Positions 8,961 through 49,370 of a DNA stretch of 64,000 nucleotides are shown in pieces. The translations under genes were made by a program, and so were the position numbers. The first letter of the stretch is position 1, and each line of letters opens with the position of its first letter. Source of the stretch: Isurus oxyrinchus (lineage: Eukaryota). The stretch is taken from positions 4,774,001 to 4,838,000 of the forward strand of contig JANJGN010000038.1 in the NCBI GenBank assembly GCA_026770705.1, given 5' to 3'. Below the pieces are notes generated by a model. That model saw nothing but the letters and a program-made list of their open reading frames with translations. It ran no database searches and was not told where the DNA came from.

Positions 8961-9480
8961 CAGTCTATAATTTCCCTTTCTGATCACTAGACAATGATCA
9001 ACTATGCATCCTTTTGGACAGTTACTGCTTCTGACCATACTCTGGCACTTGTGTTCATCCCCTGAGAAATTAATTGAAACCATGAAATTGTTTGGCAGCA
9101 TTTTATCTCCGGAATAATCAAAGCTCTGGATTTGAGTCTGTTTTTCTTTTCTTATCTGTGCTGCAAGCCTGCAGAATTCCATAACCTGTTTATCACAAAA
9201 GTGGCTGACGTCACGTGCTTGCTTTGAATAAATTATCTTGACAGGAATGCCATGTAGTTTTTAGTATATTTTTTCCATACAAAGTGATGGGATGAAAGGG
9301 TTAAGGCATCTTGTTTGTTAAGTGACTGTAATTAATGCCAGCCAGTGTATTGTTTAATTGAATCACCAGGCCTCTCCTCCGCCTATATCTAGGCAATGTT
9401 TTCAATGTGTATATCAGTGTTTGACAGAGTGTGGTCGCCAGTATAAACAGCGATCATTGGATCTCACAGCAAATGAGATC

Positions 9481-9577
9481 ATGTTCTTTGAAATTCCAAC
9501 TGAACTTCGGATTGTCTGGGTGATTTATGATTTGCAAAGGATTTACTATCCGCTCCTCGCTGCTGTTGGCATTCCTG
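9481..9577 (+). CDS. GPCR gene 1 (GPR139/142-like orphan class A), exon 1
   Basis: MFFEIPTELRIVWVIYDLQRIYYPLLAAVGIP + G, then donor GTGAGT. The IYYPxxAAxGIP motif is shared with exon 1 of the other paralogs. Phase 1. Confidence 0.85.
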
Positions 9578-12319
9578 GTGAGTGATTATTTTAGAAACTT
9601 ATTTTATAAAACATCTTTCACCATGTTTGTTGTCCTTGCCCTTAACGTAAGTTAATTAATTTTATTCTCTGTAATTCTTGTGTCCTGTGACATGTAATGC
9701 CCTGTGCTTCTGTGAAGTAGCATTTCAGCAGTTGCTGATTCACTGTTCACAGTTCATTGGACCGTTTGTATATCTCAAGACTTGCTTCAAATGATTTTTT
9801 TCTTCAGAATTTGGCTGGTATAATATTTTATGCAATAAATATTAGTGATGAATTATAGCTATTGAACAGCTGCAGTCTGCTGTTTAAACTGAACCCCAAT
9901 ATCTGAGCAGAATATGTTGCGCAGGTATTGGTTTTGCAGTGCGATGCAGATAGTAATTTGCACTGATCTGCGGAAATTAGGGCAGACAGGAACGAGGGAA
10001 GATCTCACATAATAATTCAGCTCCAGGCAAACTCCGTTCCACCATCTCCCGCTTTGCCTAACAATAACTAAATTTAGATATTTAGGAGAGAATTTAAAAT
10101 GTAATAATTGTTCAACAATATTTGCTCCCCTCACCAACAATTGGCTCCGTTCCCATTTCTGTCCACAGACCTAATTCCCTTCCCTTGTCTCTGCATGACG
10201 TTATTTAGAGCTGCAAATCATTATCCTCCTCTCAAAGTTTTTTTTTTCAAAATGTGTCCTTGGGAAATGGATGCTTGTGACAAACTTCCATTTATTACCC
10301 ATCCGGAAGTGAGCTGAGAAGTTGTGCTGAGTCTTCTTGCTGAGCTGAAGTATTCCCTCTGCTGACTGTGCTCCTACCTGCTGTTAGGGAATTCAGGAAC
10401 GCTGATGAAGGGAGATGTTACCGTTCCAAGTCAGGATGGTGCGTTAGAGAAGGTCAATCTCACGGCATTGCACACCTTCTGCATTTTGCTGTGCTGGTAC
10501 GTGCTGTCGAAGTAGCCCCGGTGTGTTGTTGTAGTTGATTCTGTAGACATTCTTCCTTCATCCACAGAGGTGGAGGTGGAGAAATAGCAAGTTTAATGAT
10601 GGACGGACACTGATGGAAAATCTATTCCATTATTGAAGGTGATTCTGCTTATTGGGTGTTGCTCTGATAACCATACTGATGAGTAGTGAGCATTCCATTA
10701 TGTTTCAGATGTGAGATTTCCAGGCGTTTGATTGGGTTGGTGGGAGGCATGGTGTAGGGTGTGGGTGGAGGGGTGGCTGCTGGTGGGGACTGGTTCACCG
10801 TACTCCCACCAAACTGCTGAACACCGAACTTCCTCATCATGTTCCTCAGTTGCTGATATAGTTAATAGTTCCATCTGCTTAGCCACTGTTCTTTGCTGCT
10901 CCATTCTGTAGTCATTACCCCTGCCCTTGTAAATAAACAACCCCTGTTGCCTCAGTCTTTGTAAGCAAACACTCCATCTCTAACCTCTCTTTCCTCTACA
11001 AATTCCTTGTCCCTGCTGCTACCCCCCACGTTTCTGCCCCATCTTCCAGGGACACCATGCTTAAATCTTTCTAACCATTTTTCTACCTTATTACAACTCT
11101 TACACCGTCCTTAGCAAAGGCACAAATTATATCTTATGTGACTCTGCTAATGTCGAGCTGCCTCTCTTCCCTTTTGTCGACATGTCTGCAGCCTTTGGCA
11201 TGGGTGACCACAATGAAATATTAAGAGTTTCATGTTCTGAATTTCCTCCTAAATCCTTTGTCCTCGCCACAAACTTATCATCCTTTAAGATAATTCTTAA
11301 AATGTGTTCTTTATTGTTATTCACCCTAAGCCAGTCTTCTTTGACCTGATCTCCATTTCGCTCTTGTGTAATTTCCCTCTATCTGCAGCTAGTGTCTGGA
11401 GTCCATTGCCGTGAAATTAATACTGACTATATCATTAACCGGAACTCCTGATGCCAACAGTGGTGAATATTGCAATGTCTGCCGCTCTGCATATCAGGAC
11501 CGATCTGAAATCTTGATCCAGGAGCATGCATGGTAATTTCCCATGAACTTTAAACTTCAGATGGGCAGATTTGTATTGCCCAGGCCCCTCTAACAATGAC
11601 TCCAATACTGACTTTAGTGTTGGACTGTTGTGCCTGTTGTGTGACAGATGCTTGGCGTAGTATTTTCCCGCTATTAATTTCTAGCATGTGTCAGTGAATA
11701 ACTTTCAAGCAAAGCCCATGCACGCCCAACCCCCACCTACAGAACTCCCACATTCATCCCACACACAACAACCCACAACACCCCCAACTACTGACCCCAG
11801 AATATCTAATCTGACTCGATTGCCTTCCCCTCGATCCACTTGCACAGCTCTCACTAGCCATCGCCCGTCCATTCAACCCCCAACCGACTGCAAAGCACAT
11901 TAGCTACTCACCCATCCCGATCCCAACTGCTGACCACCCGCCATCTACGCACCTCGTACACAGCTCATTTCCCCCACCCCGCTATGGAGGCAAGAAAAAC
12001 AAGCTGCAAGGGTGGAAAAAGATACGGCTTTAATTACATTTACAATCAGCGCTGGTTATCCGAGTATCGCCACCAAATAGGAGGCCAGGACCATTAATTT
12101 TATGAATTATCTGACATATTAATTTAAACATGCATCAAAGCCCTGTGTTAATATTGCACCAGAATCTTCAGTTTCCCTGAGATAATAACACAGAAGAGTT
12201 TCATTCTATCCTCATCCAGCGTTTAAACAGTCGAGAAACTGGTAAAAATTGTAAATTTTCATAATTTGGCTGCTCGGGTACACAATCTAGAGAAAGCTAA
12301 CATGCAATATGTGTTATTA

Positions 12320-13545
12320 TTATCCATTCATGGGAAATGGGCTTCGTTGGCTGGGCCAGAATTTATTACCCATCACTAGTTGCCTTTGTGAAGGTGGTGC
12401 TGAGCTGCCTTCTTGAACTGCTACAGTCTTCGGGGTGTAGGCGCACCCAGAGTGCTGTTCTGAAGGGAATTCCAGGATTTTGGCCCAGCGACAGAGAAGG
12501 AACGGCGATATATTTCCAGGTCAAAATGGTGAGTGACTTGAAGGGGAACTTCCGATTGGTGGTGTTCACATCTGTCTGCTCCCCTTCTCCTTCTAGATGG
12601 TAGTGGTCGGGGTTTGAACGTGCAGCTGAAAGAGCCTTGATGAGTTCCTGCAGTGCATCTTGTAGATGGCACCCACTGGTGCTACTATGCAACAGTGGTG
12701 GAGTGTGTAAATATTTTTGGATGTGCTACCAATCCAGCGAGATGCATTGCCCTGAATGGTGTCAAGCTTCTTGAGCGTTCTGGGAGCTGCGCCCATCCAA
12801 GCAAGCGAGGAGCATTCCACTACACTCCTGACTTGTGCCTTGCAGATGGTGGACAGGCTTTGGCGGTGAGGAGGTGAGTTACACGTCGCACTATTCCTTG
12901 CCTCTAATCTGCTCTTGTAGCCATAGTATTTATATGGCTTGTTCAGTTCCGTTTCTGGTCAATAGTAAACCCCAGGATTTGATAGTGGGGGATTCAGTGA
13001 TGTTAATGCCATTGAATGACAAAGGGCGATGGTTGGGTTCTCCCTTGTTGGAGATGGTCATTGCCTGACACTTGAGCGGTGCACAAGATACTTGCCACAT
13101 GTCAGCGCAAGCCTGGTAATTGTCCAGCTCTTGCTGCATTTGAGCATGGGCTACTTCAGTACCTGAGGAGTCGTTAATGGCGCTGAACATTGTGAAATCA
13201 GTAGCGAACATCCCACTTCTGACTATGTGATGGAAGGAAGGTCATTGATGAAGCAGCTGAAGATGGTTGGGCCGAGGACAGTACCCTGAAGGAATGCTGC
13301 AGTGATGTCCTAGCGCTGAGATGATCGACCCCCAACAAACACAACCATCATCCTTTCTGCTAGGTATGGTTCGAAGCAGCAGAGATTTCCCCCCTGATTC
13401 CCATTGACTCCAGGTTTGCTAGGGGCCCTTGATGCCACACTCTACCAAATGTTGCCTTGATGTCAAGGGCAGCCGCTCTCACCTCCCCCCGGGAGTTCAG
13501 CTCCTTTTTCCATGTTTGAAACAAAGCTGTAATGAGGTTAGGATA
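12320..13545 (-). mobile_element. Non-LTR retrotransposon (CR1/L2 group, family B), 3' RT fragment
   Basis: Frameshifted RT motifs: AALDIKATFGRVWHQG, MFATDFTMFSAI (decayed FADD), MECSSLAWMGAAPRTLKKLDTIQ. Lies in the intron of GPCR gene 1. Confidence 0.85.
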
Positions 13546-13599
13546 CAGCAATATAGCAAGTGAATAGGATAATAAATGGCAGTCTTCCCTGTATTCGAG

Positions 13600-14105
13600 T
13601 AAGGAACTTTTGATAGAATTATGCATGTGATTGGTGAGAAAACATATCGATTAATGTGTACAGTTTTGGCCTTCTTGCCTAAGGAAAAATATACTTAAGT
13701 AATCAATCAATCAATCAAATTTGACATGCATCTTCTTAAATTTAGAGGATGTGTGATTATCTCATCGAGTCATAGAAAATAATTTAGTGTCCTCATAGCA
13801 TGGATGCTGAGAGAATGTTTCCCTTAGGTGGGGAGTCGAGAACTCGATCCCTGAGATAAAATGTTGGCCATTTGGAATTGAGATGAAGAGAATCTTCTTC
13901 ACTGAGAAAGTGGAGAAACGTCGGAATTATTAACTCTCGAGGGCTGTTGGTCGGTAGATTTTTGTGCTCTAAGGCCATTAAGATAAATGGGGATAGTTTT
14001 GGATAGTAGAATTCGAAGAACGGCCATGGGTTTAATGAACATTAGAGTTGACCAAAGAGAAATATGGCTTGCTCTTGCTCCTAGTTCTTGCATTCTTATG
14101 TAACA
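13600..14105 (+). mobile_element. CR1/HER1 LINE, 3' end fragment
   Basis: gagaatgtttccc...gggagtcgagaac...gagatgaagagaatcttcttcactgag...ggcttgctcttgctcctagttcttg tail. Confidence 0.65.
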
Positions 14106-14838
14106 ACTTCATTTCCCAACCACTGGCCCATTTAATTCCTGGCCCAAAACACAGACATTAGATCCATTGGTAAATTCTCTCCTGCTAGCCAGCCTGAATT
14201 TTGGGTGCTGCCACTCTCTGCTGTTCCTTCGTGTTGGCCAGCTCTGATTCAATCTCTAATTTATTTTCTTCAGTCTAGCGATCCATTTACCTCCCTGTTC
14301 TTTATTTCTTTTCGAGAGTCTATTTGTTACTGGGATACAGTCTAAGCGTTCATTGTGCCTTTTGGCGAAGGCAATAATTATCAGGAAGGCACATTTGGAC
14401 ATCCTGATTTGAAATACAATTTCTGAATTCAAATCTGTATTTACTTCTTTACACAACCTTAATGTTCCACTCAAATGTCTTCTCAAAAATAAATGAACCA
14501 TTTTCCTTCAGTACAAATCACAGCCCTTCTTACATATCGTTGTGATGCAGTTTGCAGCATGTTCATGGGATATTGAGCAGGACTAATAATGGGGTGAGTG
14601 ATTTTCACTCCGAATTCCATGAATAATTTAGGGAAGTGGCGATGAGACCTGCTGCAGGATTTGGTTTCCTGCTACAACAGGATGGTGTTTAACTCGAAAC
14701 ACTCCCTCCAGCGTAAAGCTCAAACACTGGTAAAGTAATTAGATTCTGACCTTGGATAACTCTGTTCAAATGTCACTCCATCAGTCTGTAACATTTGCTC
14801 TAAGTTAAATAACTATCCTGCCTTTCTCTTCCTTACAG

Positions 14839-15740
14839 TGAACATACTGACTATTGTGACACTGTCTCGGGGAAGGTGCGGTCTCTCAAAATGTGTTTCC
14901 CTTTACCTGGTGTCCATGGCAACCGCGGATCTACTGGTCGTTATCCTTGATCTCATATTCAGGCAAATTGCTATTCTTTACTGGGCTCAGTTTCAGTTCA
15001 TGTGGAGGTTTAAAGTGTGTAATATCCATGCTGTCCTGCTTTATGCAGCCACAGATTGTTCTGTCTGGTTCACAGTCTCTTTCACCTTTGATAGATTTCT
15101 GGCTATTTGTTCCCAGAAGTTGAAAACAAAATATTGCACAGAGCATACGGCGGCTGTGGTTCTCGGAACAGTCAGTCTGCTATTCTGTGTGAAGGATACA
15201 TTCTGGTACTTTATGTATGTAGGTCATTATTCGCTTTCCAATGCTCCTTGGTTTTGCAAATTAGTGACGGATGCTGAATTCTCATCAATGTGGGCAGCAA
15301 TCGAATGTCTTCATTATATTTTAACACCATTTGTGCCATTTGTTTTGATTTTGATGTTGAACGCTTTAACTGTCAGATATATTTTACTGTCGAGCAGAGC
15401 CCGCAGGAGACTCCGGGCTCACTGCAGTGGGGAGAGACCCAGGGACCCACAGATGGAGAAACGCAGGAAATCCATCATTTTACTGTTTGCTATATCGGGG
15501 AATTTTATCCTGTTATGGTTAGTTTTTATGATAAATTCTGTTTGTAATAGGCTATATGTGTTAGATGCTATTCCTGTATACCTTCCTAGGTTTGTGCAGG
15601 AACTGGGATTTATATTTCAGTTCCTGAGTTGTTGCACTAACACGGCCATTTATGCAGTGACCCAGACTCAATTCAGAAATGAGCTGAAGAATGTGGTGAA
15701 ATATCCCTTTTCTGTAATTTTTAAATGTATTAAACAGTGA
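14839..15740 (+). CDS. GPCR gene 1, exon 2 (TM1 end to C-terminus); spliced protein about 332 aa, intact
   Basis: Acceptor ctttctcttccttacag. VNILTIVTLSRGRCGLS...MATADL (TM2)...VCN (TM3 Cys)...FTFDRFLAIC (DRY-like)...PWFC...LTPFVP...RRKSIILLFAISG...SCCTNTAIY. Seven hydrophobic segments across both exons. AATAAA at 16245. Confidence 0.92.
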
Positions 15741-16689
15741 CAAGAATATCCATTATCAATACGAGTTGACCCTGTTTTATTCCCAATCTCTTCACCTCGG
15801 TGATGAGCACAGGGTGAGGCCAGTTTTCATCTTTCACCGCCAGGATTCAATGACTAACAGAAACGGTGCATTTGGGAAGTAATTTACCTCAGTCCTGTTT
15901 GTCCTGCAAGTTTCCTGGCTATTCCAACTCTCCTGTTGTCCTTGGGCCTGGTGTGTGAAATTCCCACCCACCAGGCACGAGTTCCATGTCATTATCGAAA
16001 GGGGCTTTGGAGGATAAGGCCACTTGGGCAGGTGACAGTCCAGGGGCGGACATGCTGCAGTGTCTCCAGCATCACAGGGAAATCTTGTTCAAAACATTTC
16101 AGACCAACCTGCAGATGGGAGGGTGGGTTTCAGAGGTTCGAAAGTCAGTGATTGCAGCTTTTCAAAATCTTTCTGTGATTTTATTCCAGTGTTTTTAGAG
16201 CTGAACAGTCACAGTATCTCGGAGCGGGAAGTCTCCTCGTTTCAAATAAAGATTTATTTCCACTGCACAAGTTATGTTCCAGTGAAATTCGTCAATTCAA
16301 ATGTCCCCTGAACTCATCTGGAAAAAGTATGTTCAGGAGAGGAGAGAGAGGGGGGCCAATGTGCTCGGAACTGAAATAAAAAACAGCAATGCTGGGAATA
16401 ATCAGCAGCCCTCGCTACTTTTGTGTAGCGAGAAACAGACTAATGCTTCAAGGGCTTCCATCAGTGTTGTGACACTCTTACGTGATCCAAAGGACTCCTG
16501 CTGCTGCAGCAGTAAATGAAGCATGTCATTTCAAAGTGTGAGGTGTGGGGTGAGGGGCGCCGGCGACCTACGTGTGTGTTTTTTGTTGTGGGGGTGGGGG
16601 TGGTGGGGGTGATGGAGTATAGAGTGAAATATCAAACTTTGTCAGCATCTGGCCAGTGGGCAATTGGAAGGCTCACTACTTGAGAGCCA

Positions 16690-17545
16690 GCTGTTCACAA
16701 CACATGAATAATTTGGATATGAGCGCCAAATGTAATATTTCCAAGTTCGAGGATGACACAAAGCTTGGTGGGAACGTGTATTGTGAGGAAGGTGAAAAAC
16801 GGTTTCAAGGCGATTTGGACAGACTTGGTGAGGGGGACAGAACAGGAAAGATGAAATTTAACGTGGAAGAATGTGAGGTTAACCAGCTTGGTAGGATCAG
16901 CAGAGGTGCAGATTATTTCATAAAACGTGAGAGCCTGGAAAATGTAGCTGTACAAGGGGGCCTGTGTACCCTCATCAATAAGTCTCTGAAACCTGGCATA
17001 CATATGAAGCATTTAGGAAGGCGAAAAGAATGTTAGCTTCTCTCACAAGTGGATTTGAATACAGCCATAGTGAATTCTCATTTCCTTTGTATATAATCTT
17101 GGTTAGGCCACCCCTGGGGTACAATGTGCAGGTGTGGCCCCCTTACATTCGGAAGGGAGTCAATGTTATTGAGGGAGTGAATCGAAGGCTCACCAGATTT
17201 GCATCAGGGATGGTGTGACTGTCCTGTGAAGAAGGATTGGGGACACTGGACCTGTATTCTCCAGAGTTTCCAAACATGAGCAAAAAGATCTCATTATAAC
17301 AAACAAAACACCTGAATGGAAGAAAGTGTAAATGAAGCTCAGATGTTTCCCCTGGTCGGGGAATCTAGAAACAGGGGACACAATTTCAAAATAAGGGTAA
17401 AGCCACTAGGACTGACATGAGGAGAATTGTTTTTTACTCAGTGGTTTGCGAATGTTTGTATTTCTGCATCCCGGAGAGCTGTGGAAGTACAATCATTGAG
17501 TATGTTTAAAGCAGAGAATGGCAGATTTCTAAATAATAATCTGCC
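16690..17545 (+). mobile_element. CR1/HER1 LINE RT fragment
   Basis: CNISKFEDDTKLGG...QGDLDRL...MKFNVEEC; LVRPPLGYNVQVWPPY. Confidence 0.85.
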
Positions 17546-17654
17546 TTACTGTTTTATCCCCATTATATTGCATCAATAAGCCACTCCCAAATCCCATGTG
17601 CAATGACAGCGGTTAAAAAAAATGCAGCCATGAGAGGAGGGAAGTCCTGAACAG

Positions 17655-17905
17655 TAAAAGCTAAATATTGCGGTTTCTGGAAATCTAAAACTAAAAGAGA
17701 AAATGCTGCAAAACCTCAGCATGTCCAACATCACCTGTGGAGATAAAGACAGGATTAACGTTTTGAGTCTTTTTGACTTTTGTTCAGATAAGAAGACTCT
17801 GAAGTAGAATCATGCGGGCTCGAAACGTTAACCCTGTGGTTTTCTTCACAGATGCTTTATGAACTGTTGAGATTTTCCAACTTTTTCTGTTGTTGATTCA
17901 GATGT
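17655..17905. mobile_element. Palindromic Penelope-associated short element
   Basis: Same family as 18233-18439. Partial copies at about 1195-1305, 16370-16470, 21330-21460, 24125-24245, 34640-34760 and 50570-50690. Confidence 0.7.
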
Positions 17906-18232
17906 CCTGATGGGCTTTGCGGTAGAGGAAGGGAGAGAGATTGGGAGAGAGACAGGGTTTAAGCAAAAACTCCACTCATTCATAAATATCATTCCGAGTC
18001 TTGAAGATGTGTAGGTAAGTTTTCTCTGCCTAACCCTTCCTTTATTCAACAACATGGAACCTCGCGCCTGAACTCTGAGGAATTAGAGAAAAGTGGCGCA
18101 GTTTCAGATGGATGATATTGGAAGATAGCAGGATATGAAGAGAAACTTCTGCTGTTATTCCCGTGATCGGGAGGCTCTGAAGTATCGTCTGACGAAACGA
18201 TGAGGCAGGTAGAACGAAATCCCTGGGGTGAT

Positions 18233-18439
18233 AAATGCAAAATACTGCGGATGCTGGAACTCTGAAACAAAAATAAAATTGCTGGAAAAACTCAGCAGGC
18301 CTGACAGCATCTGAGGAGAGAGCAACAGAGTTGACCTTTCGCGTTCAGCTGAGGAAGGGTCATACCGAATCGAGAATCTGTTTCTGCCTCTGCAGATTCT
18401 ATCAGACCTGCTGATATTTCCAGCGTTTTCTGTTTTCAC
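18233..18439. mobile_element. Palindromic Penelope-associated short element with target-site duplication
   Basis: Arms tgctggaaaaactcagcaggcctgacagcatctg / cagattctatcagacctgctgatatttccagc. Flanked by a 12-bp direct repeat ccctggggtgat (18221-18232, 18440-18451). Confidence 0.8.
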
Positions 18440-19861
18440 CCCTGGGGTGATGTCCAGCGAGTTCAGGGAGATGGTATCAGTAGGAATGAGCTGATCAGGA
18501 ATACAGTTCATTATCAAAGCAGAAGGGAGAATGACAGCGCTAATGGATTTAACAGAAAAGGTGGAAGTGGAGAGTCGGCCTGTGTTTACTGGAATAACGA
18601 CCATGTATATGCTGAACGGAAAGGGGTGTGGCAGGGCGAGGTGCAGGCTGCGTCTGTTTGTGTATTTAAGAGAAAATGGAAAGCCAGTGTCTCAGTATCC
18701 GATCGGCCCCAGGATCTCTGAACAAGCCCCATGTTTATGGTTACTTGCAGCATAAAGTTGGACCCCATCTTTGAGTATTTTGGCGGTTTTGAACCCCCCC
18801 CCCCCCAACCCCGCACCCCCCCCCCCCCCACCCCCGTATGTCCAATAGACCTAATGCTCTGTAATAATTTGCAGGATTTGTACTGAATAATACAGCAGTG
18901 CCAGACACGCCCCAGCCCCTGGAAACATCCCTTGGTTTGTGCTCCGTATTCTGCCTGTGTTATATATCTAGCCTGTGGCATCCCCACTTCAAAGTGTTTA
19001 ATCGGACATTGCAGAGGGATCTTGAACAATTTTCTGACCCTGATTGCACCAACGGTGGGAGTGTTTGATGGGGTATTTTAAAGGATGTTTTCTGCTCCAA
19101 TTTCCTGTCCTATATCAGCCTCCGATGAAGCCGAACCCTACAGTTTAGAATTGCCAGACATGTGTCTGTGAGCGCCCAGAGTGAAGTCACCGAGGTGACC
19201 CTCCCTGTTCAATCATTCCACCTCGGGCAATAGCCAGAAACAGGCAGAGGTAAAGGTCTCCTTACACGGATGGGGCGATGGGTGTAAACAGAACCCCGAC
19301 AGGAATGGTAAAACGGGGAGAAATGTGTAACAGGGAAAATGCAGCGGTGTCGATGGGCCTTGGGGAAAGGAATTCAGCAAAGTCACAGTTAGTTCACTTT
19401 TCATTCCAGATGTATTAGTAATATCAGAGAATATTTCACAGGAAATTTTATTTTAAAGTTAACAGAAGTGAATATAATGCCTGAGGTCACGTTGGGAACA
19501 GAACACATGCGCTCTGATTTGGTAAATTGTATGTACCACTGGAACATAGATCAGAAAGAGAAAACTGAGGCTCAAAGGAAAGGGAAGGGGGTAATAACGA
19601 ATAACGAATGAAAACGTTACTTAATTACAATTCAAATCCTAACTCCAGGGAAATTAGATGCTACAATTACATTATAACCATTTTCATCTCACACCTTTCA
19701 TACATGAAATTGGAAATACTGCTACAGGTTCGGTTACAGATTCGGGATCACAAAGTGAAGACATTTCACCTTTAGAATCACCAAGAGAACAGATTTTATA
19801 TTGGAATAGAGAGACCTGAAAAAACAGCTGAGGAAAAGCTACGAGGTCCAAATTCAACCGA

Positions 19862-31931: not shown

Positions 31932-32839
31932 TCATTTAAAAAAATTAACAATCAGACTCAATGGATATTTCACACCATTCTTTAACTCCTCTCTGAATTT
32001 ACTCTGGGTACCTGCCTAAATAATGAGGTTGATGCAGGAACTTAAAAGCTGCAGCATAAGTCCGCATTCCTCCAGTATAACATTTGATTGATTGAAATTC
32101 GAGCCATCGAAATAACTAACGCTGGCAATTCGTGCATAAAGGAAAGTTATAAGTGCGAGGAAATATAACAGGATGAAACTTCCGGAGATGGCAAAGAGTA
32201 AAACGATGGACTTTCTCCTCTTCTCCATCTCTGGGTCGCTTTGTTTCTCGCTCTTGCTGTGGGCTCGCAGTCTTCTGCGGGCTCGACTGGCCACAACAAT
32301 GTGCCTGACCGTCAGAACATTGAGCAGCAAAATAAGAACGAATGGGAGACAAGGGGTTAAAACGGCATTTATGCTGTCATATGCCACCCATCCGGGTGAC
32401 AAATAATATATTGGCTTTAGTTTGCAGTACCAGGGTGTATTGTCCGTGATAACAGAATGTTCACAAGCAAAGTACAAGGGTATTTTTTTAGCACAATGCA
32501 CAACGCAGACAGTTCCTATGACCACAGCTGCCGATTTCTTGGTGCAATATTTGGTTTTCAGCTTCTGACAACAAATGGCTACAAATCGATGAAAGGTGAA
32601 AGCAACTGTCACCCAGACAGAAGAATCCCTGACGCCATATATGAACACAAGACTAAGAGCAAAGGCCGGAGTGATGGAGAGGAAACTGAATGGGAAATAT
32701 GTACCTACAATCCGGTTTAACATCACAGCAAGGATCATGATCAGGAGATCCGTCACGGCCATGGACATCAGGTAGTATGTGATACATCCAATGAGACCGC
32801 ATCTTCCTCGAGACAGGATCACAATTACTGCCAAATTAG
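31932..32839 (-). pseudogene. GPCR gene 2, exon 2; probable recent pseudogene (nonsense codon in TM7)
   Basis: Acceptor ctctgtcacag. Colinear with gene 3. TAG at 32018-32016 replaces the Tyr of NPxxY (CINLII* vs CINPFIY). The frame continues AGTQSKFREELKNGVKYPLSLIVNFFK to the ancestral stop at 31934-31932. DRF is changed to HRF. Confidence 0.85.
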
Positions 32840-34230: not shown

Positions 34231-34300
34231 CTGGAATCCCGATCGCTGCAATGACGGGATAATATATGATGAAAATAAGACCTTTTGGCAATCCGTGCAT
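34231..34300 (-). pseudogene. GPCR gene 2, exon 1
   Basis: MHGLPKGLIFIIYYPVIAAIGIP + G, donor GTTAAG. Same 70-nt length as exon 1 of gene 3. Confidence 0.85.
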
Positions 34301-34350: not shown

Positions 34351-34447
34351 AGATATATCTCAAGCCAGCCTCCAGGGAGACAATTAGACGCTTTGATCTT
34401 TTGCAATAATTACGCTAATTGAAACAAAGATGCTCGTGCTGCAGCTG
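34351..34447 (-). promoter_or_regulatory. Proximal promoter of GPCR gene 2
   Basis: In transcription order: E-box CAGCTG, homeodomain sites CAATTA/TAATTA/TAATTG, O/E(EBF)-like TCCCTGGAGG (34378-34369), TATA-like GATATAT. Alignable to the gene 3 promoter. Confidence 0.55.
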
Positions 34448-36296: not shown

Positions 36297-36347
<51 letters not shown>

Positions 36348-38460: not shown

Positions 38461-38539
38461 TTCCAGGATGAGGACGTCAAACAACTTCCCCTTGGAATTT
38501 AATGTAATTGCGATAGTCGAACCCCCTATGTCAACATTT

Positions 38540-38860
38540 GGGGCAGCGTGATAGGGTGATCCAGAGGCCGAGGCACATAACTTTGTGACATCGTTTTAAA
38601 TCATAACATGGCAGCTAATTCATTTAACGCGACTAGATTATCAAGCTCGTCTCAGTAACTGTGCCCACAAAAAACGGTCATCGATTGTTACAAACACCCA
38701 TCTGCTTCACTACAGTCCTTTAGGGAAGACAATGTGCCGTCCTTACCCGATCTGGCCTACATGTGGCTGCAGACCCACAGTAAAATGTCTGCCTCTTAAC
38801 TGCGCTCAAATTGATAACAAATATGGCCTTCTGCGCGATGCCCACATCCCATGGGGCAAA
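38540..38860 (+). mobile_element. Deu-domain SINE copy
   Basis: cccatctgcttcactacagtcctttagggaag...ccgtccttacccgatctggcctacatgtggctgcagacccacag. Confidence 0.65.
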
Positions 38861-39859
38861 ACAATCAAGTTATCAGTATTCTGCAACTGCACCTTCCAAA
38901 GTCCGGGTTTTACTGTCTTGGAAAACAAAGGTAACAGGCACATGGAAACACCATCAGCTGCATTTCACTCACGCTCGAAACTTGAAAATATTTTTCATCA
39001 CTTGGTCAAACTGTGAAACTTCCTGCCTTGCAGTATTATGGATGAAGATAGCACACATGGACTGAAGAGGCTCAAGAAGGCAGCTCACCACGAAATTCTA
39101 AAGAAAATTAGCAATTCGCAATAAAGATTGAGCTTGCCACCTAGGGCCATATTGCAGGGATAAATAGAAAAGGTGGTATCAGTATTAAGTGGAGACAATA
39201 TTGCAGTCCTAGTAATAATGTGTTCCTCATATCAAACACATAACCCAACTGCTGGGAGCTGATAAATTGCACTTGAGCTGCCACATTACCTGGGATGTTC
39301 CATCACTCGCAGAACAGTGGGAAGATGAGAGACGTTTACTTTGCAAAGAGTTAAAAGGAATGATTCAAAAATGCATTGCAAACAGGAATATGAAACTTTC
39401 AATCACCCCACATATTGTGGCAGATTTCTATTATCGTTAGAATATCATATTCCCCTTTGACCAATCTTTGTACTTTTAAGCACATGCACTCCGATACTTC
39501 TGTGTATGTTTCAGTATTAATAAATAACTTGGGTTGACGCACAGTCCACAGCAACAGGGTTTTGCTCAATGTGACCGAAGCTATGGGCAAAAATAGGGAT
39601 ATTTTTAATTCATATAAAGCGCCTCCAAGCCAAATTCTCCACATGATGTTTCTTGCATCCACCTGGGATCGTGAAAATGGCTTAAGTTTTAGATGCCACA
39701 CGATTTGCCGAACTTCAATCAGCGCAGCTCTCCATTAATACTGCAATGAACTATTATTCATTTTAAATTTATGCTCATGCCTCAAAGAAATCGACCCCAC
39801 ACCACATGCTCTAAATTTTCCATCACTTAAGTGGCCAACGTTCCAGGGAAGGACAGGGA

Positions 39860-41200
39860 AACATTACAAAGATACCACGAAGCTCTTATTGAAGCGCAGC
39901 GCCATTCAAATGAATGATTTCGACCAACCATTAACAAAAATGGCGAGACTTTCCATCACTTTGCTTGTAATGCAATGTAGACTAATGTGGCGATATTTGA
40001 CCGGACTGGATTGTTCCTTCCTTTTCTGGACAGGCCATATTTGGGCAGCTTCCAATTGTTTGAGTCATTGCCAGCTTTCTAAGATGTGCAGAAGTCGGAA
40101 ATAGAGTCAGCTTGTTCTGAAGCACTAATCTTCAATTCTACAGCCGGCTCTTTTTTCGGGCCCGTTGCCTTTGTGGCATCCTTTGTACTCAATCGTCTTT
40201 AATATTAAATGGAATCAATTGAATAGGGTGAGGACAGAACACTGGGACGATGGAGACCTCAGAAGGAGTCTGAGATGGATCTTCCACTCGGGAGTTCTGG
40301 CTGAATGTGGATTAAAATCCTTCAGCCATCTCTTTTTGCACCGATATGCTGGACTCCCCCATCTTTAGGGTTAGGGATATTTTTGGAATACCCTCTTTCT
40401 CTTTATTCTTCTATTGTCCACCGCTATTCATGATTGCATGTGGAAGGATTGCAGATCTTTGGTTTGACCAATTCTTTGTGGGATATCTTAGTGCTGTCAA
40501 CACATGCTTTTTAAGCTGCTTGGATTGCACAGGTTTCTGTTTTTTTACTTCACCAGGTCGAAACCTCCTTTTTAGGTCCGGTGGGTGCAGGCCTTGGCAT
40601 GCTGTCCGACACCCTTCACTTTATCAGAATTGATCCCTTCATCTGTTGGTAATGTCAAAGTGAAGGATATAACGGGCCATGAGTTTACAAACTAACATTT
40701 GATACAATGCTACAGCTGCTGATGGCTCACTGCACCTAATGGAAATCCGGCTTTGATTTTCTTGATTTGATTTAGCACAATGGGAGCGCCACACAACACG
40801 ACAGTGTGACAGTTTTCATGTTTACACAGAATGTGTACTGGAGGCTTCTCCCAATACTATGGTGGATAGGTGCCTCTGCATCTACTACAGGTAGTTTGCG
40901 TATGATCAAGTAAGGTGTGTTCTTCCCTGTTTTTGGCTCCCTCACCACCTACTACAGGCATAGTCTGGTCAGTGTTTCCTTGAGCATGCAACCAGGTCAA
41001 TTTTTACCGGTGCTTCAGAGACGCGCTTGGTGATGAACACTGAAGCCCCTAGAGTTCATTCTGTGACCTTGCACCTCTTAGTCTTTCTTGCAAGTGGCGC
41101 TCAACATGGAGCAGTACGGATTCATCAGGGAAGTGTGGGAAGTGGAGTGGGTGGTCATGTGGGGTGGGGAGGGGGAATCAGCTGGAGGCACTTCTTCAGT
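39860..41200 (-). mobile_element. Family B LINE, internal (endonuclease/linker) decayed fragment
   Basis: Shares gctgaagcactaatcttca-type and ccactcggga...tggctgaa-type internal LINE sequence. Heavily decayed, no ORF. Confidence 0.5.
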
Positions 41201-41399
41201 AGGGCCGTTGTGCAAAACAACAAAGCTGCGACCAGTAATGTTGCACAGCTAGTGTAGTTGCAAATAATTTAAACTAAATTAGCTAAGCCTGTGCTCGCCC
41301 AATTACTGAAATAAAAGCGCGAAACAAGCTGAAGAAGGCAATGTTAGTTTTAGATCAAACTAGAAACGCAACATTTAATCTGTTTCATAGACAATAATA

Positions 41400-42165
41400 C
41401 GAGGACTCTGACATATCAGAATGTTGGAAAGAGTTAGGAAGAGGAGTTCCGATTTCAAAAGTCTACAGCATCTGAATAAAAGTGGCATGTGGGATTTAAC
41501 CCAGGAAATGCTAGATTTAGTAAAATGGCCAGTGAGGAACAATATCCATTCAATGTTAAGGTTCTAAACAGTGCACAAGGACAGAGGGACCTGAGGGTCC
41601 GTGTGAATCGATATTCGAAGGTGCCATGACATGTTGAAAGTATCGTTACAACAGGCTGCGGAATTTTCGAGTTCATAAATCGAGAAATTGACCATAAATA
41701 TGTTAACAAGGATGCGGCGCCTTGGCAGCAATATTCGGTGAGTGGAGCTTGGGTTGTTCTCATCGGAGGAAAGGGAATTGATGAGATGTTTGGTAGAAAC
41801 TTCCTAGATGAAACGGGTTGACATAAGGTAGACAGCAGAAAATATGTTCCCAGTTACCGATCGTAAAGTTGCTTGGGTGCAACGTTTTAAGGACCTTCCG
41901 AAATGTGCTGGCAGCACGTGATGAACAAAGGTGTTGATGCAGCGAGTGGTCATGACCTCAAAGTGCTGCCTACAATTGTGGTGGAAACGGAGATGACTCG
42001 TGATTTCAAATGGAAATGTGATAGCTACTTAATGGAAATAAACGTGAAGGGCCACTGAGATAAAATGGGGAGGAGGAGACTGACTAAACTGTGCTTCACA
42101 GATCCTGAATGTTTGCGAAGGACTGAATGAGTTCCTTCTGTCTCCAAATGTCCTGGTAACATTAT
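41400..42165 (+). mobile_element. Decayed CR1 fragment
   Basis: aagtggcatgtgggatttaacccaggaaatg...acagagggacctgagggtccgtgtg...gactgaatga..tccttctgt tail. Confidence 0.6.
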
Positions 42166-45005
42166 GATATGAGGATTTCCCAATGTGAATAGATGAAAGC
42201 AGAAAGCCAAATTGTTCACAGTGCCTTACTCTATCACCATGGCCCTGTATCATCCCTCAACAATTTTGTCGGCCCTGCACTCTCACTACAGGCCTAAATG
42301 CATCGAAAATCATTCATTGTTTCGTCTATATCCCTACACTAAAAGAATCCTTGAAATTCACACATTGCTGCCTTTTCACTCCAGTCCTGTATCAATCCAA
42401 GGGGCATTCATACTGCTCGGCTCTCTCATTACATGCCTGTCTCAGTTCAAAACATTTCACATTGCCTAGCAATTCGCTTCAACCTGGTACGAACCTGGAA
42501 TAATTCACTCTGCCCTATTTTCTAAGTGTAAGCCTCTGGCAATCCGAGATATTTCACCCTGGTGTTTTATTCTCACAATAAGACTGTACCAATCCAAAAT
42601 AACTCACAATTTTCTTTCTTCTCACTATAGGCTAGTATCTATCCAAAATAATTGGCACTGCCCGTCATTCGCATTGCAGCACAGTATTCATTCAAAAATA
42701 TTCTCTCATTATAGGTATGTATCGAACCTAATCAATTATTACTCCCTATGGCCTTTTCGAAATGTAACATTGATCCGACTGCTTTACTCCCCCACCGCCG
42801 CTCCCTGCCCCCAACAACTGCTCTGTACAAATTCAAAACAACTCAGACAGCTCCTCGGAGTTGTCGAACCAACAAAATTATGCCAGGGTAGAACATTACT
42901 GCAGGTATATTACAGAAAGAAAAAACTCTTTAAAAGTTTACCAATATCTGCACTTAGAAAGGAAACTTAAGATTTCTACTATATTGTTACTTATATGTGG
43001 GTTTGTGAGGAATTCAGTATGAGGCTACAACTCATATGTATATCAATACTATACCACCGGATATAACCTAGCAATCCTATGTAAGAAAGCATAAGATTAT
43101 AAATCCACTTTATTGAACAATCTGGATATTCAAACAAATAATGATTTGAAGAAGTTATTCTTAAAATCTAGTATAATTTCTTCACCGTATAGTGTACATT
43201 TTTCTTAACTTTTAAATGGAATTCTCTCATAACTCAACCCTTTTTATCCTACAGATGGCTGAGCTATGTCTCTGTAGTTTTGTGTCTGGGTAATGGCTTT
43301 CACAGGGGCATGCGTCTTGTCTCTGTAGCTTACTGTACTATCTAGCATTGTTCGTTGTATTCTCTATTTTTCTCCAGAATTAGTTCTTATCAACATTTGC
43401 TAAACTGTGAATCCTTGAGGGTCAGATGTTTACCATATAGCTTCTACGGGTTTTTGGCTGCGCTCCAATGGCGAGACATTTAAGATTGATTTATGAGTTC
43501 CCAGGCGTTCTGTTTCTTGTGTTGACAGGATTTTTGGCAATGATACAGATGCTGCATAATATAGTTTAATTATTAATTCAAATTGTAATTTACTCCTCAA
43601 TTTCTTCATTAAATGGGTCATTTATTTTACATGCTTAGTTGTTAATTTACATTGATATACACGATGGCTGCGGTGTGTACAAAGCTCATCTAATTTGTTG
43701 ATGGATCATGCAAATACAGTTGAATTGGCAGGGAGTGACAGCTGATTCGCAGGATTTGTATGTGGGCCTCAGCTTTTCACCGCATTTAGAAGGATCAAAA
43801 TGAAGCAACAGAAAGTTTCGAATCCAAATTGCTGCCGAAAATAAGCCATGTGGTACAGTAAATAGTTTACAGAAGGACAGGACATTTCGAAGGGTTGTTG
43901 TTGGATAACTGAATGAGCAAACTGTGGGAGAAAGAATACAATTTGTGGAAAGGTGTTTTTCTCTGGCGCTTTATGTTTATCCATTGCACGTCACCATATT
44001 TTCTAATTAACGTGAAACTATAAATGATAGTGGTAAGTATTTTCCATATTTTTGTTTACCCGCCACATGTTTATTGGTGTTCGATTTGCAATGCGTAACT
44101 TTAACATCAATCATTGCAGTCGATGACCTGTGATGACCACCATTTTTAACTTCGTTGCTGCGGTTAACAGCCGCATTCAATTCTCCTTAGTAGTGCACTT
44201 TGTTGTCAAGGCTGTGAGATACCCTTCGGAGCCGGAATTCATTATACTCGTAGCCACATTATTTAGCTGAGCTAAATTTTGAAATCTCAGTGTTCGTTCG
44301 GAAAGCCCTGTGTTTGTTCCCTACTTCCGATCGCGTGTCTGTAGCCCAGCTCCGTGCCCCTGAGGAATTCTACTCTGTCGTCCTTCTGACGAGGCTCTAG
44401 GCCGAGGTCTTTCTGCTTTATCAGTTGAAAATCCTCACTACTGCTGCGAGACCTAATCTGCCACTACAGCAATCACTGAACTGCAAAAAAGCCTTTGATG
44501 CGCTTTGACTAGTTTCCACAAAGGCAAAGCCCAAATTGAATCAATGGTGTTCGCTCAAATTTTCTTTTTCATCGTACCTTGGTTCCTTCTGATATTTAAT
44601 AGGAATCCGTTATTACCCATAACTTATTTCCTGTCATTCGATTGGTTTCATTATTATAGCGGTTTAACGTTTCATAACGTTATTATTTACTGTATTTATA
44701 AATGAATAAATGTATTGAGCTTTGACCTGTATTTTAATGCCATCTTCAGGTTGTCCTTGTGTCAATTTAATACGTTAGTGAAGATCAAATCCCTCTATTT
44801 CTAGATTACATAAAATTTACATGAAACGGAAAGTAAGTGTTTTGTGTCATTTTATATTCCGACTTCCACTTTATTTGGGACAATATAAATAAAAAAATGG
44901 ACTAGCATTAATACATTGGCAAATTAATCAGTTCCAGCGTTGAATGACGTATTGATGGTCCACATGCCAAACGGATGTTGTAGCTGGGAGTTTCAGCACT
45001 AATTT

Positions 45006-45052
45006 TTCCCTTCTCTCTCCTTTCTCTCTCTCTCTCTCTCGCTCTCTCTCCC
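45006..45052 (+). repeat. (TC)n microsatellite forming the polypyrimidine tract of the GPCR relic
   Basis: Seen directly in the sequence. Confidence 0.9.
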
Positions 45053-45058
45053 TTACAG

Positions 45059-45215
45059 CTAACTTGTTGACTATCGTGATCCGTTCCCGAGGAAGATGTG
45101 GTCTTTCCAGATACGCAGAGTCCATGGCGGTGACAGATCTCCATGTTATTATCATTACACTGATATTAAGCCGGTTTACGGCTGTTTATTTTCCAGTCAG
45201 TTTTCTGAGCCACTC
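45059..45215 (+). pseudogene. Truncated GPCR exon-2 relic (fourth family member)
   Basis: After a (TC)n tract and ccttacag: ANLLTIVIRSRGRCGLSRYAESMAVTDLHVIIITLILSRFTAVYFPVSFLS. This aligns to the start of exon 2 of genes 2/3 with a 12-nt in-frame deletion. Similarity stops at about 45215. Not in the ORF track. Confidence 0.8.
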
Positions 45216-46369
45216 AAAAAACGAAACGGAAACATTCTGAATCTGAATTCTACGTTTCTTTTTCCGGAATTAAGTCTTTTCAATCTTTATTCAACTGTGA
45301 AGCCTTGAGGGTCAGATGTTTACTGTCTAGCTTCTCCGGATGTTTGGCTGTCCTCCAACAGCAAAACATTCAAGATTGTTTTATGTGTGTCTGCGATTTC
45401 TGTGTCTTGTGTTGACGGACGTTTTGGTAATGATACAAATGATGCACAATGTAGTTTAATTGTTACTTCAATAATGTCATTAAAACCAGAATTTCTTAGT
45501 TAAACAGGTCATTTATTTTACATGCCTAGATGTTAATTTAAATTGATATCGACATAAATTTAACTCGCGATGGCTGTGGTATGTACAAAGCTCATTTAAT
45601 TTGTTGATCGGTAATGTGAATACAGTTCAATTGACAGGGGGTGACAGCTGGTTCGCACGATTTGTATTTGGGTCTCAGCTTTTCACCGCATTTAGAAGGT
45701 ACGAAATGAAGTAACAGTAAGTTTTGTATCCAAAGTGCTGCCAAAAATAAGCCATGTGATACAGTAAATATTTTAGATAAGAAGAGGACATTGCGAAGGG
45801 TTGTTGTTGGATAACTGAAAGAGCAAGCTGTGGGAGAAGGAATATTATTTGTGGGAGGGTGTTTTTTTGTGGCGATTTGAGTCTAACCATTACAGATCAG
45901 CATATTTTCTAATTGGCGTGAAACTGTAAATGATAGTGGTATGTATTTTTCCATATTTTTGTTTACCCTCCACATGTTTATTCGTAAATTTATCAAATAG
46001 TTGCAATCGATTAACTGTTATGAAGAGCACTTTTAACTCTGTTGCTGCTGTTAACTGCTCCATTCAATTCTCCTAAACTGCATTTTGTTGTCAACGCTGT
46101 GTGATACGCATCGGAGTTCATGACTGATGTAATCCTGGCCTTAACTCCGTTTTCCTGCCAGACTGAGTAACCATCGGATCTCTTGTCGATCAATAATTTG
46201 TCTAACTATGCCTTGAATATATTTAGTGCCCCTGCCGTCTCTTGGTTTCTGGAGAAGACAATTCCAAAGTCTCCAGAACCTCCTCATCCCCTGATACTTT
46301 TGCCTATGAACCTTCCTTTATCAGTAACAATAGACCTAGATTTTGTCGTGGAAAATCACAATGAATAAA

Positions 46370-47335
46370 ATCACTCCGGCTGAGATCAGTCTGCACTGAA
46401 AATCATGCTACAGAACTGCAATTACGCAAATTGAATGTAACCTCACTGATCAAGACATCTGCACACGAAGCATAGCTGCTGGGAAATTAAAAGGTTCACA
46501 GTGATCAATTGGGACTGTCCACCACAGTGAACCACAGAAGCTCAAATTAAAAGTAAGAATGCAGAACTAAACCAGTCCAGTCTGAATGCAAATGTCCATG
46601 TACACATTTATTAACACCGAGCAGACTTTCATAAATCTACACGAAACATAACCTTGCTCGGCCAGTCCTGTCTCCATCGAATACAGCAGTAATGAAATTG
46701 ATTATTCTATATGGAATGTAATCACGCTGAAGTGAAATTTTCCACTGCAAGAAAGAAAGTGTTCACAGCCGGGGCTGTGCACATTGTACGTAGTTGTGTT
46801 CCACTGGACAAAGTTGACAATAATCGGGCAAAAGGTCGTCCATGTACATTTAGTGTAACAGGATGGAAATTGGCCTGTTCATACTGAGTGCAGCTGTGCA
46901 CAATTTAACCTGAATGCAGTGAATGCAATTTACTGAACTGGACAGTCACACCAGCGTGATAATCCCCTAAACTGGTTTTCCACTAAACAGTGATTGCTAA
47001 CGAGCTGAACAGGACTTTCTACATGGCATTTAACCATGTTGATTTGGAGCGCTCCATCATTAATTTAATCGTGCTTAACAGGAGGTTGTCTTCTCTGAAT
47101 GTGAGTGGACTGAGCTTAGACTGAAAGCACGAAACACACACGTCCTGAACTGGATCTTGCCACACAAAATGTAAATTCACACACCTGTGCACTTTCGTTA
47201 TTGCCAGGATTGACATGGCTACACTAACTGAATTGAACTAGTCCACAATGGAAGTAACCGTGCCAAACCAGGCATGCGCACAGTGAATATAACCGTGCTG
47301 AGCTGCACATTTCTACGCTGAATGTAAACACCCTG
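46370..47335 (+). repeat. Degenerate tandem repeat, about 35-bp unit, upstream of GPCR gene 3
   Basis: Units such as gtgccaaaccaggcatgcgcacagtgaatataacc / gtgctgagctgcacatttctacgctgaatgtaaac. Approximate consensus GTGCTGAACTGGACNTGTCCACACTGAATGTAACC. Confidence 0.6.
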
Positions 47336-47339
47336 AATG

Positions 47340-48500
47340 GAATTAAACAGGAAACGATGGAAATACTCAAGATATCCGGCAGCATGTGACCTTTCATCAG
47401 ATCAGGCAAAAGTTACAGATAGAAGAGTTTTTATGCAAGTGTAGAGCCAAAAAACGGATTTGGGGGAAAAAGGTTCAAAAGGAGATGCTTCTGGTAAATG
47501 GGAAAACAGGAGAAATCAAATGACAAAAGCAGTGATGGTGGAAGTCAAAGTGGAACAAGGAAAAGCAGAAGAGGAATGTCTAAAAGATGGCAAACTGTAT
47601 ATAACAGAATCAAAATCAAGAAATTTTTTCACAACGCAATAACAAAGAGCAAAGATGGAAGAAAAATGCAGTGGGTGTGATCACGATTGTTGAAATTTAT
47701 GGAAAATCCAAAAGCCTAGAAAGTGCCTTAAGGAAATATGAGATTTTACTCCTGGAGCACAGGTTCCATTTCATTGGAGCAGTAGGAGGGTTCAATCACA
47801 GTCATATCAAAGTGAGAGCGGAACAGATAATTAGGTTGACAAGTGACCAGAAGATCACACTTGTGGACCGAATGGATGTACCTGAGAAATTATCACCAAT
47901 CTACATTTAACCTCCAGGATGTAGAGCAGACGGCATATTGAGCAGTGAACAGGGTATACGCAATGGACAGAAGTTCAAACAAATCGATTTTCCATTTAGA
48001 AGCATTGTTTGGGACGTAGGACAGAGAGAAGGGCAGGGAGGCAGAGGCTGGCGTTGCATGTTCATTGCGTGCATGGGAAGGTTCTTCGGAAAAGGAAGGG
48101 TTGGATTGATTTTAGAGGAGGCAAGTGCGGAGTGGAGCAAAGACCCATTCTCAATGTTAGAGAGTAGAAGTGAGTTGGGCATATTGGGCAGTGACAACAT
48201 GCCGGATGAGTTTGAAAATGCAGAGGTGGACCAAATGATACTAGAGATGTGTGGAATGGTAGGCAAGGGCAAGGAGAAGCCTATTGTGGAAACTGGAGGG
48301 GGAGAAGGTGTGAAAGCAGAAGTCTGAGACATGTTACATGCACGGCGCTGTGTTCTGTCAACCACGGTGCGCTGGAAATACTCGGCTGAAGTAATTGGAA
48401 GCTCTATTGGAGAAAGCTAGAAGGGATAATCGAACATATTCAGCAGAAACTGAGATTCTGAGAGAACGGAAAAGTTCCTTTCCAGTAAGCGAGGTGCATG
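47340..48500 (-). mobile_element. Penelope-like element fragment (GIY-YIG endonuclease region)
   Basis: Decayed minus-strand frame TFPC..TCN...CVYPVHCSICRLLYILEVKCRL matches the PLE pattern VYxxxCxxC..LYIGETxxRL. Terminal palindrome-type sequence at 47340-47460. Confidence 0.7.
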
Positions 48501-48979
48501 GATGTGTATTCAAGATAACTGGGTTTTGGTGAGCTTCTGTTGAATATTGGGCCATAGCCAATTCCCCGATGTGTCCACATCAAAGTGGCAGAAGGAAATA
48601 TAAATTTCAAACATGGAGCAAGTAAGTGCATGGGGAGGGTTACATTCCAAAGCAAACGTAACCTCATTTTCCAGTTCAGGGGTTGAACGAGATCAATACT
48701 GATCTGGTCATGAATATACCAGGCAAAAGTGTGATGGAGGTGCCTGAGTGGGACTGGATCAATAATTCTGCTACAAATCCATCTAAAAGCCAAACAGAAA
48801 TAGGACACAAGCCAATACCCATAGCATTGGTGTTTCATTTACAGATTTAATTGAGACACTTTTTGTCGTGAGTTGACATCCAAGCAGGCAGAGAGGCTGA
48901 GGGTGGATGGCTACTGATTGGTTCCTCATTCCAGAAGGGAAAGGGAGCCACGTTAACGTGATCCGTGTTCACACGGGCT

Positions 48980-49098
48980 GAAAAATGATCAAGAGTGAGA
49001 ACTTTGTAATGTTTTCCTGCGGAGTCTAAATACATGGACGAAAAATGATCAAGAGTGAGAACTTTGTAATGTTTTCCTGCGGGGTTTAAAGCCATGGA
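48980..49098 (+). repeat. Tandem duplication, 60-bp period, 2 copies
   Basis: gaaaaatgatcaagagtgagaactttgtaatgttttcctgcgg is identical at 48980 and 49040. Confidence 0.95.
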
Positions 49099-49277
49099 TG
49101 CTCGTGCACAGTGCTCACTTTCACAATTACAATGGCTTATTTGGCATGTTCTTTAAATTTTAGGAAAAAATGCAACTTGGACCGTACTCTCCTGTCTGAT
49201 TATTTCAATTTGGAGCCGCGCCAGTGTCCTTGAAAACAGATTCCATTCCATCAAAAATATAAACGCGAGCGTGGCAG

Positions 49278-49370
49278 CAGCTGCACTAAAATGTTTTTTT
49301 CAGTTAGTGTAATTAATGTGAAAAGCCAAACCTTCTCATTGTCTCCCTAGAGTCCGACATCATGTATAAA
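49278..49370 (+). promoter_or_regulatory. Proximal promoter of GPCR gene 3
   Basis: CAGCTG (49278), TAATTA (49310), O/E-like TCCCTAGAGT (49344-49353), TATAAA (49365). Confidence 0.55.

Follow-up and report, generated by a model that had tools for sequence, protein, structure and literature searches.

We analysed a 64,000-nucleotide stretch of the Isurus oxyrinchus genome (hereafter the window; contig JANJGN010000038.1, G000:C38:4774001-4838000) and searched the 4.98 Gb genome for relatives of the genes it carries for G-protein-coupled receptors (GPCRs). An initial annotation had proposed that these genes have promoters of olfactory receptor (OR) type and may be unrecognised chemoreceptors. 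We found that they belong to a family of roughly 2,000-3,000 loci, a lower bound, many of them broken, and that a compact promoter layout recurs across the family. Judged from sequence, its genomic profile is that of a chemoreceptor repertoire. Some chemosensory role is likely on this basis, and we favour, with moderate confidence, the reading that these GPCRs are a new olfactory receptor family of cartilaginous fishes. More tentatively, they may form a fifth family of vertebrate olfactory receptors that arose from a GPR139-related orphan receptor and comprises at least about 1,000 intact genes in this species.

Promoter layout across the family

We collected 84 regions upstream of exon 1, excluding second exon-1-like copies found inside introns, and sorted them into 21 groups that did not align with each other at E 1e-4; counts were averaged within groups. 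The order that recurred in this genome was a forkhead-like site (TGTTTGTT), a homeodomain site (TAATTR), an Olf/EBF (O/E)-like site and, 11-12 bp on, a TATA box. TAATTR was present proximally in 14.7 of the 21 groups (25% distally), the forkhead-like TRTTTGTT in 10.3 (7%) and the strict O/E pattern in 6.2 (2%). Words of the forkhead-like TTTGTT family also came out top in a de novo search of an earlier set of 22 groups. With the TATA box as sole anchor, the bases most often seen between -30 and -12 made up a homeodomain site and then a pyrimidine-then-purine O/E-like site, most commonly 3 bp apart, with the 11-12 bp gap to the TATA box. An O/E score of at least 7/10 at 9-16 bp before the TATA box was reached in 12.3 of the 17 TATA-bearing groups, compared with 4% of control TATA-like sites. 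The initial annotation had named motif enrichment over the family promoters as a check, and both putative site types did stand far above local background, with most groups needing the relaxed O/E score. The motifs persist where the flanking promoter DNA has ceased to align. We take them to be candidate sites of Lhx2-type, EBF and forkhead proteins, from the consensus sequences of these factors and from the papers cited below.

Promoters of other genes in the same genome served as controls. We used 19 V2R-type exon-1 regions (L173-L191, G000:C2:230.7-237.8 Mb), leaving out a 20th, weakest match. A TATA box was found close to the ATG in 14 of the 19, TAATTR in 10 (17 of 57 distal windows, p 0.065) and an O/E score of at least 8/10 in 11 (15 of 57, p 0.014), mostly 60-125 bp further up; an O/E site stood beside the TATA box in 4 of 16. 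The strict O/E pattern was absent (0/19), and the forkhead-like site and the homeodomain-3 bp-O/E arrangement were each seen once (1/19). Proven shark olfactory genes therefore share the kinds of motif loosely, not the fixed layout. V-gene promoters on C26 gave 0/11 each for O/E, forkhead and TATA (the leader was located in 11 of 20, mostly of one subfamily), and the upstream stretch of a single-copy relative of the family (relative B, below) was without the promoter code.

These comparisons bear on a rival explanation, that the family is a chemoreceptor repertoire of other cells: taste cells, solitary chemosensory cells of skin, gill or gut, or other sensory cells positive for EBF, homeodomain and forkhead factors. 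EBF and homeodomain factors act in many neurons, and the size, variability and selection data reported below are equally compatible with such cells. The strongest de novo motif is the forkhead-like one, yet it is missing from all but one of the V2R promoters, which suggests a different cell state. Pou2f3-type cells would be expected to show the octamer, which is not enriched (1.4 of 21 groups). The adjacent pair of homeodomain and O/E sites is best documented in olfactory enhancers and promoters, as far as the passages available of the papers cited here and below go: both sites are required in the mouse M71 OR promoter (PMC12547500), and a composite of the two occurs in mouse OR enhancers (PMC5608512, PMC7804114). 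A study of mouse V1R genes reported O/E-like sites in each of the 39 promoters it looked at (PMC3247230). In bony vertebrates, olfactory neuron genes are likewise under the control of a forkhead factor, though in ciliated cells (PMC10810531). We regard a repertoire of non-olfactory cells as rather unlikely.

Within the window, the following features of the receptor genes were located (TM, transmembrane helix).

9058..9076, plus strand: gene 1, distal pair of O/E-like and homeodomain sites, TCCCCTGAGA at 9058-67 and TAATTG at 9071-76
9312..9390, plus strand: gene 1, proximal promoter, TGTTTGTT at 9312-19, TAATTA at 9329-34, TAATTG at 9355-60, degenerate O/E position CACCAGG at 9364-70, TATA-like at 9384-90
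9481..9577, plus strand: gene 1, coding exon 1, phase-1 GT donor directly after
14839..15740, plus strand: gene 1, exon 2, reading frame open after splicing (332 aa), Pfam 7tm_1
31932..32839, minus strand: gene 2, exon 2, premature TAG at 32016-18 (codon 298, TM7), DRF changed to HRF
34231..34300, minus strand: gene 2, coding exon 1, ATG at 34300
34351..34447, minus strand: gene 2, promoter, CAGCTG at 34442-47, TTTGTT at 34423-28, CAATTA at 34416-21, TAATTA at 34407-12, TAATTG at 34381-86, TCCCTGGAGG at 34369-78, TATA-like at 34351-57
45055..45210, plus strand: fourth family member, truncated exon-2 fragment
49278..49371, plus strand: gene 3, promoter, CAGCTG at 49278-83, decayed forkhead-like site at 49292-99, TAATTA at 49310-15, TCCCTAGAGT at 49344-53 (containing CCCTAGAG at 49345-52), TATAAAT at 49365-71
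49422..49491, plus strand: gene 3, coding exon 1
50737..51647, plus strand: gene 3, exon 2, reading frame open after splicing (326 aa), Pfam 7tm_1

The window thus holds three two-exon 7tm_1 genes and one gene fragment, in keeping with the proteins of about 330 aa, two intact and two broken, described initially: genes 1 and 3 are open, gene 2 is likely a pseudogene by its TAG, and the fourth member is a fragment. Every motif quoted for genes 1-3 was found where the initial annotation had placed it. The O/E-type site of gene 2, given as about 70 bp before the ATG, is TCCCTGGAGG at 69 bp, and TAATTG and CCCTGGAG are separated there by 3 bp. Gene 3 had been said to keep the layout of gene 2; CAGCTG, TAATTA, the O/E site and the TATA box are indeed present, but the homeodomain site beside the O/E site has been lost. 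The O/E motif reported for gene 1 exists at 9058, and the distal pair is also found in the 2 close paralog promoters checked, but the position homologous to the family's O/E site is the degenerate CACCAGG. The forkhead-like TGTTTGTT is a layout element that had been overlooked, and the E-box CAGCTG, listed among the shared motifs, turned out to be confined to the subfamily of genes 2 and 3 (2.8 of 21 groups, 8% distally). Matches to the O/E pattern alone number 19 in the window against 24.1 expected, which is no enrichment, so the window alone proves nothing; the family was tested for this reason, and the support is positional and family-wide. A 59-bp tandem duplication lies about 320 bp upstream of the gene 3 ATG (window 48980-49098).

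Size, descent and evolution of the receptors

A pattern for the end of exon 1 had 429 matches in the genome and a strict TM3 motif 1,026, both with 0 control matches; a looser TM3 motif had 2,253, a few of which may be other GPCRs (control 3). The looser pattern recovered 61 of 81 members identified by other means, which puts the family at about 3,000 loci. Protein searches of the genome returned at least 130 matches for gene 3 (7,814 first-look candidates) and at least 131 for gene 1 (7,974). Clusters were also found on other chromosomes (C6, C7, C17-C19, C21). Representatives are 36-87% identical (median 49%), and exon 2 was free of stops in 18 of 31 loci chosen by hand for their spread over contigs, about 40% of the sampled loci being broken. 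The birth-and-death evolution that had been suggested from four genes therefore holds on a very large scale, with thousands of loci and many broken ones; a large, diverse, clustered family of this kind is what an olfactory repertoire looks like.

Among public proteins, all 120 homologs of gene 3 among the matches listed were named shark proteins. A search at E 0.001 gave 2,099 clusters among 4,494 candidates, and the family profile gave 138 clusters (50% identity) at E 1e-30; in the 10 profile clusters looked up, the named members were sharks, skates and a stingray. The intron contains a second copy resembling exon 1, with a GT donor, at L116-L118 (near 8552) and L133 (near 1163). It may be a relic duplication or an alternative exon; the L116 copy is without promoter motifs. 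A very large subfamily (L130 925-1147) has a longer N-terminus with short repeated units that carry N-glycosylation motifs, the number of repeats of this type differing between contigs.

RefSeq labels the shark proteins automatically as 'probable GPR139', and their best PDB match is human GPR139, a weak one (E 8e-8). The shark's own GPR139 is single-copy (G000:C15:1454792), with a 55% relative on C22 that we have taken for GPR142. Family members are 21-33% identical to shark GPR139 (about 25%) and have in common with it a phase-1 intron before the TM1 Asn. With GPR139 as nearest known relative and the same TM1 intron, the family is a member of the GPR139-related superfamily. The window's gene proteins match Pfam 7tm_1 only (E 0.001) and their nearest relatives are GPR139-like; no membership in the classical ORs, TAARs, V1R/ORA or V2R was found.

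We built a midpoint-rooted tree, leaving out two long-branch unnamed proteins and a somatostatin-receptor outgroup. The family formed one clade (96/92) and grouped with a salamander gene (100/100), the closest bony-vertebrate relative found, apart from GPR139/142 and from two further genes, relatives A and B. Both of these are GPR139-like, unnamed and auto-labelled GPR139. Relative A (L129, G000:C6:157839116) is single-copy, with orthologs in chimaera, rays, coelacanth, lungfish and teleosts and a splice acceptor immediately before the ATG exon. Relative B (L193, G000:C9:126713131), also single-copy, has orthologs in teleosts, amphibians and turtles; a GC-type donor follows its exon 1, and an upstream exon may also be present. 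A first tree had placed relative A as the family's sister, a position overturned once relative B and the salamander gene were added. Orthology to GPR139/GPR142 was rejected on the 21-33% identity and the 100/100 split. The GPR139-like name given initially does not fit a separate clade at about 25% identity; as judged from this tree, the family descends from a GPR139-related branch distinct from GPR139/GPR142.

The initial annotation had also argued for aromatic amino acids as ligands. The abstract of PMC5430874 names F3x33, H5x43, W6x48 and N7x38 as residues of the Trp/Phe pocket of GPR139. Among 49 family members, 3x33 was aromatic in 34, H5x43 was kept in 18, W6x48 in 40 and N7x38 in 6. The pocket is only partly kept, at about 25% overall identity, so the amino-acid argument is weak.

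Entropy was calculated from 39 diverse members, with region limits set by hand. The inner parts of TM3 and TM6 were conserved (0.61 and 0.72) and extracellular loop 2 (ECL2), outer TM6 and ECL3 were variable (2.11, 2.45 and 2.84), a variable ligand side and a conserved signalling side as in olfactory repertoires. The ratio of nonsynonymous to synonymous change (dN/dS), from 28 open of 30 gene-3-like copies, was 0.33, and 0.36 for the outer half, values biased low since they come from best protein matches. This points to purifying selection in the gene 3 subfamily, with no sign of positive selection at such depth. In this subfamily (L001-L030), Phe replaces the TM3 disulfide cysteine in all 30 copies (window 50913-50915); the ECL2 cysteine and the dN/dS of 0.33 are kept despite this loss.

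The family could instead stem from a peptide-type orphan receptor, ordinary in its neural or endocrine role, that segmental duplication multiplied passively, its motifs being an inherited promoter. The broken loci (about 40% of those sampled) and the missing TM3 cysteine in 30/30 copies would fit such a history, as would the duplications around the window: some 30 copies of the window's amplified unit exist at 87-100% identity, each bringing a V segment with it, and a large inverted duplication mirrors window 45055-64000 upstream of the window (L204-L207), with gene 3, the fragment and a further gene, beyond gene 1 and the V segment. The subfamilies, however, are old (median 49% identity) and common to skates and rays, open frames are kept with dN/dS well below 1, divergence lies mostly at the ligand side, and the motifs outlast the alignability of the flanking promoter DNA. 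We consider passive multiplication quite unlikely. A separate, non-coding duplication of 860 bp (80% identity) lies on both sides of the gene fragment (window 43369-44231 and 45259-46116).

Antigen-receptor neighbourhood and transcript data

One further feature of the window belongs to the same amplified unit as context, and is not part of the receptor genes.

1784..2074, minus strand: variable (V) segment of T-cell receptor (TCR) alpha/delta type

Its best natural single-domain matches are TCR alpha chains, and it has a 23-bp signal with an atypical heptamer; the neighbourhood, described earlier as immunoglobulin, is in this respect TCR-alpha/delta-like. Thirty V-segment copies, at no less than 87% identity, accompany the amplified unit, and over about 17 Mb of C26 (23-40 Mb) GPCR genes are interleaved with diverse TCR-type V segments.

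This co-location and co-amplification with antigen-receptor V genes is the main argument for leukocyte receptors that sense pathogens or chemotactic signals. B cells, too, are driven by EBF and a forkhead protein, and the FOXO-type TGTTTAC was found in 4.0 of the 21 promoter groups (6% distally; p 0.03, uncorrected for 21 motifs). Against it, the TCR alpha locus of mammals is itself flanked by OR genes, many family clusters lie on other chromosomes, and the 11 V-gene promoters scored do not have the layout. CAGCTG, octamer, PU.1, ETS, RUNX, IRF, NF-kB and TCF patterns, scored as consensus sequences, were not enriched across the 21 groups, whereas TAATTR was, which leaves the B-lineage alternative of the initial annotation without motif support. 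The V-segment neighbourhood keeps an immune reading alive and the promoter motifs do not favour it; we hold it to be quite unlikely.

Contigs from 6 of 9 RNA or guessed-RNA runs were compared with gene 3 (X1, X10, X11, X13) and the paralog L130 (X1, X8, X10, X12). In these six runs, no contig on gene 3 or L130 joined sequence across the intron. The contigs were pieces of many paralogs, some running through the promoter or intron; they fit DNA carry-over and are neutral on expression. Run X1, labelled as a coral metagenome, contained shark-like family contigs covering intron and promoter (on window 51412-51664), which probably reflect mislabelling or the presence of shark DNA in the sample.

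Weighing an olfactory role

The background on shark olfaction comes from catshark, in the passages available of two papers (PMC10116579, PMC11979771). All catshark olfactory neurons carry Go and TRPC2. The V2R family has about 34 genes, and sharks have large noses with 4-9 genes in each non-V2R receptor family. Labelling amounts to 0.45-5.94 neurons per mm for known receptors and to about 6 per mm for the presumed V2R co-receptor; from this we infer that neurons are left without a known receptor, the cited passages giving no total neuron count. A top-50 list of brain-and-nose genes (PMC11979771) is without GPCRs, but it is also without V2Rs and so is uninformative. In the available main text of that paper, 'gpr' does not occur. 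We found no description of such a GPCR expansion in the literature searched, most subscription papers being outside its reach; the family is apparently undescribed, with its genes already in RefSeq under the automatic name.

Several points weigh against an olfactory reading. It is a prediction from genomic sequence. The strict O/E pattern is missing in about 70% of groups, and windows and score cut-offs were picked after the sequences had been viewed. All promoters derive from one ancestor, so what the groups show is motifs conserved by selection and not gained independently. The full layout has 37 genome matches, 27 of 30 examined lying directly before a family exon 1, and a reversed control has 32, all on one strand, so the raw number does not exceed that of the control. 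Part of the loci may be alleles, since for 11 of the 30 gene-3-like ones a neighbour is at least 99.6% identical. The low bias in dN/dS, the sparse strict, forkhead and spaced sites of V2R promoters and the interleaved V segments count on the same side. So do published data, in the passages available: sharks are without the ciliated neurons for which the OR code was worked out (PMC11979771, PMC10116579), the mouse composite marks enhancers, not promoters (PMC12547500), and one mouse composite probe has a similar GAG half-site with 2-bp, not 3-bp, spacing (PMC5608512).

If the olfactory reading holds, homeodomain (Lhx2-type), EBF and forkhead proteins would bind the compact TATA promoter, and the shared forkhead-homeodomain-O/E-TATA layout would switch the genes on in microvillous olfactory sensory neurons. 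Each neuron would pick one or few genes. The variable pockets would bind different water-borne ligands, probably diverse and not specifically aromatic amino acids, and the conserved inner face would signal through a shared G-protein pathway, the Go/TRPC2 machinery of olfactory neurons.

Among known systems, vertebrate ORs are likewise class A GPCRs with short N-termini, in huge tandem clusters with many pseudogenes and with homeodomain, O/E-like and TATA sites near the start. The shark family differs in having no sequence relationship to ORs, an intron inside TM1, rigid spacing to the TATA box and an extra forkhead-like site, its olfactory expression being putative. GPR139 and GPR142, orphan class A receptors for Trp and Phe, resemble it in the best PDB match and the phase-1 TM1 intron; they are one-copy genes, against thousands here, in a separate clade, and the shark receptors keep their pocket only in part. 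Shark V2R/OlfC genes are similar in the TATA box close to the ATG (14/19) and O/E-like sites at loose positions (11/19), but they encode class C receptors and are without the forkhead site or the fixed homeodomain-O/E-TATA spacing. Invertebrate FMRFamide/sex-peptide-receptor-like proteins of the nematode srw type offer a lead only: feature neighbours include mollusc, nemertean and arthropod clusters with Pfam Srw, and srw receptors act as chemoreceptors, but the shark proteins match 7tm_1 only (E 0.001) and a parallel, if there is one, would have arisen by convergence. The TAARs and the vomeronasal FPRs of rodents, non-sensory GPCRs that were recruited to olfaction, are similar in being a lineage-specific expansion of a single-copy non-olfactory branch with a chemoreceptor-type promoter (FPR: PMC7873101). 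The shark family has a different parent receptor and a far larger expansion and, unlike the FPRs, gives no sign of a captured V1R/V2R promoter.

Whatever tissue expresses the family, the literature searched appears to contain no account of a GPCR expansion this large whose promoter code is conserved. If it is a fifth olfactory family, the repertoire would rival the largest mammalian OR repertoires and would overturn the view of sharks smelling with a few dozen V2Rs. The thousands of GPCR loci under the label 'probable GPR139' make the puzzle of large noses with few receptors directly testable.

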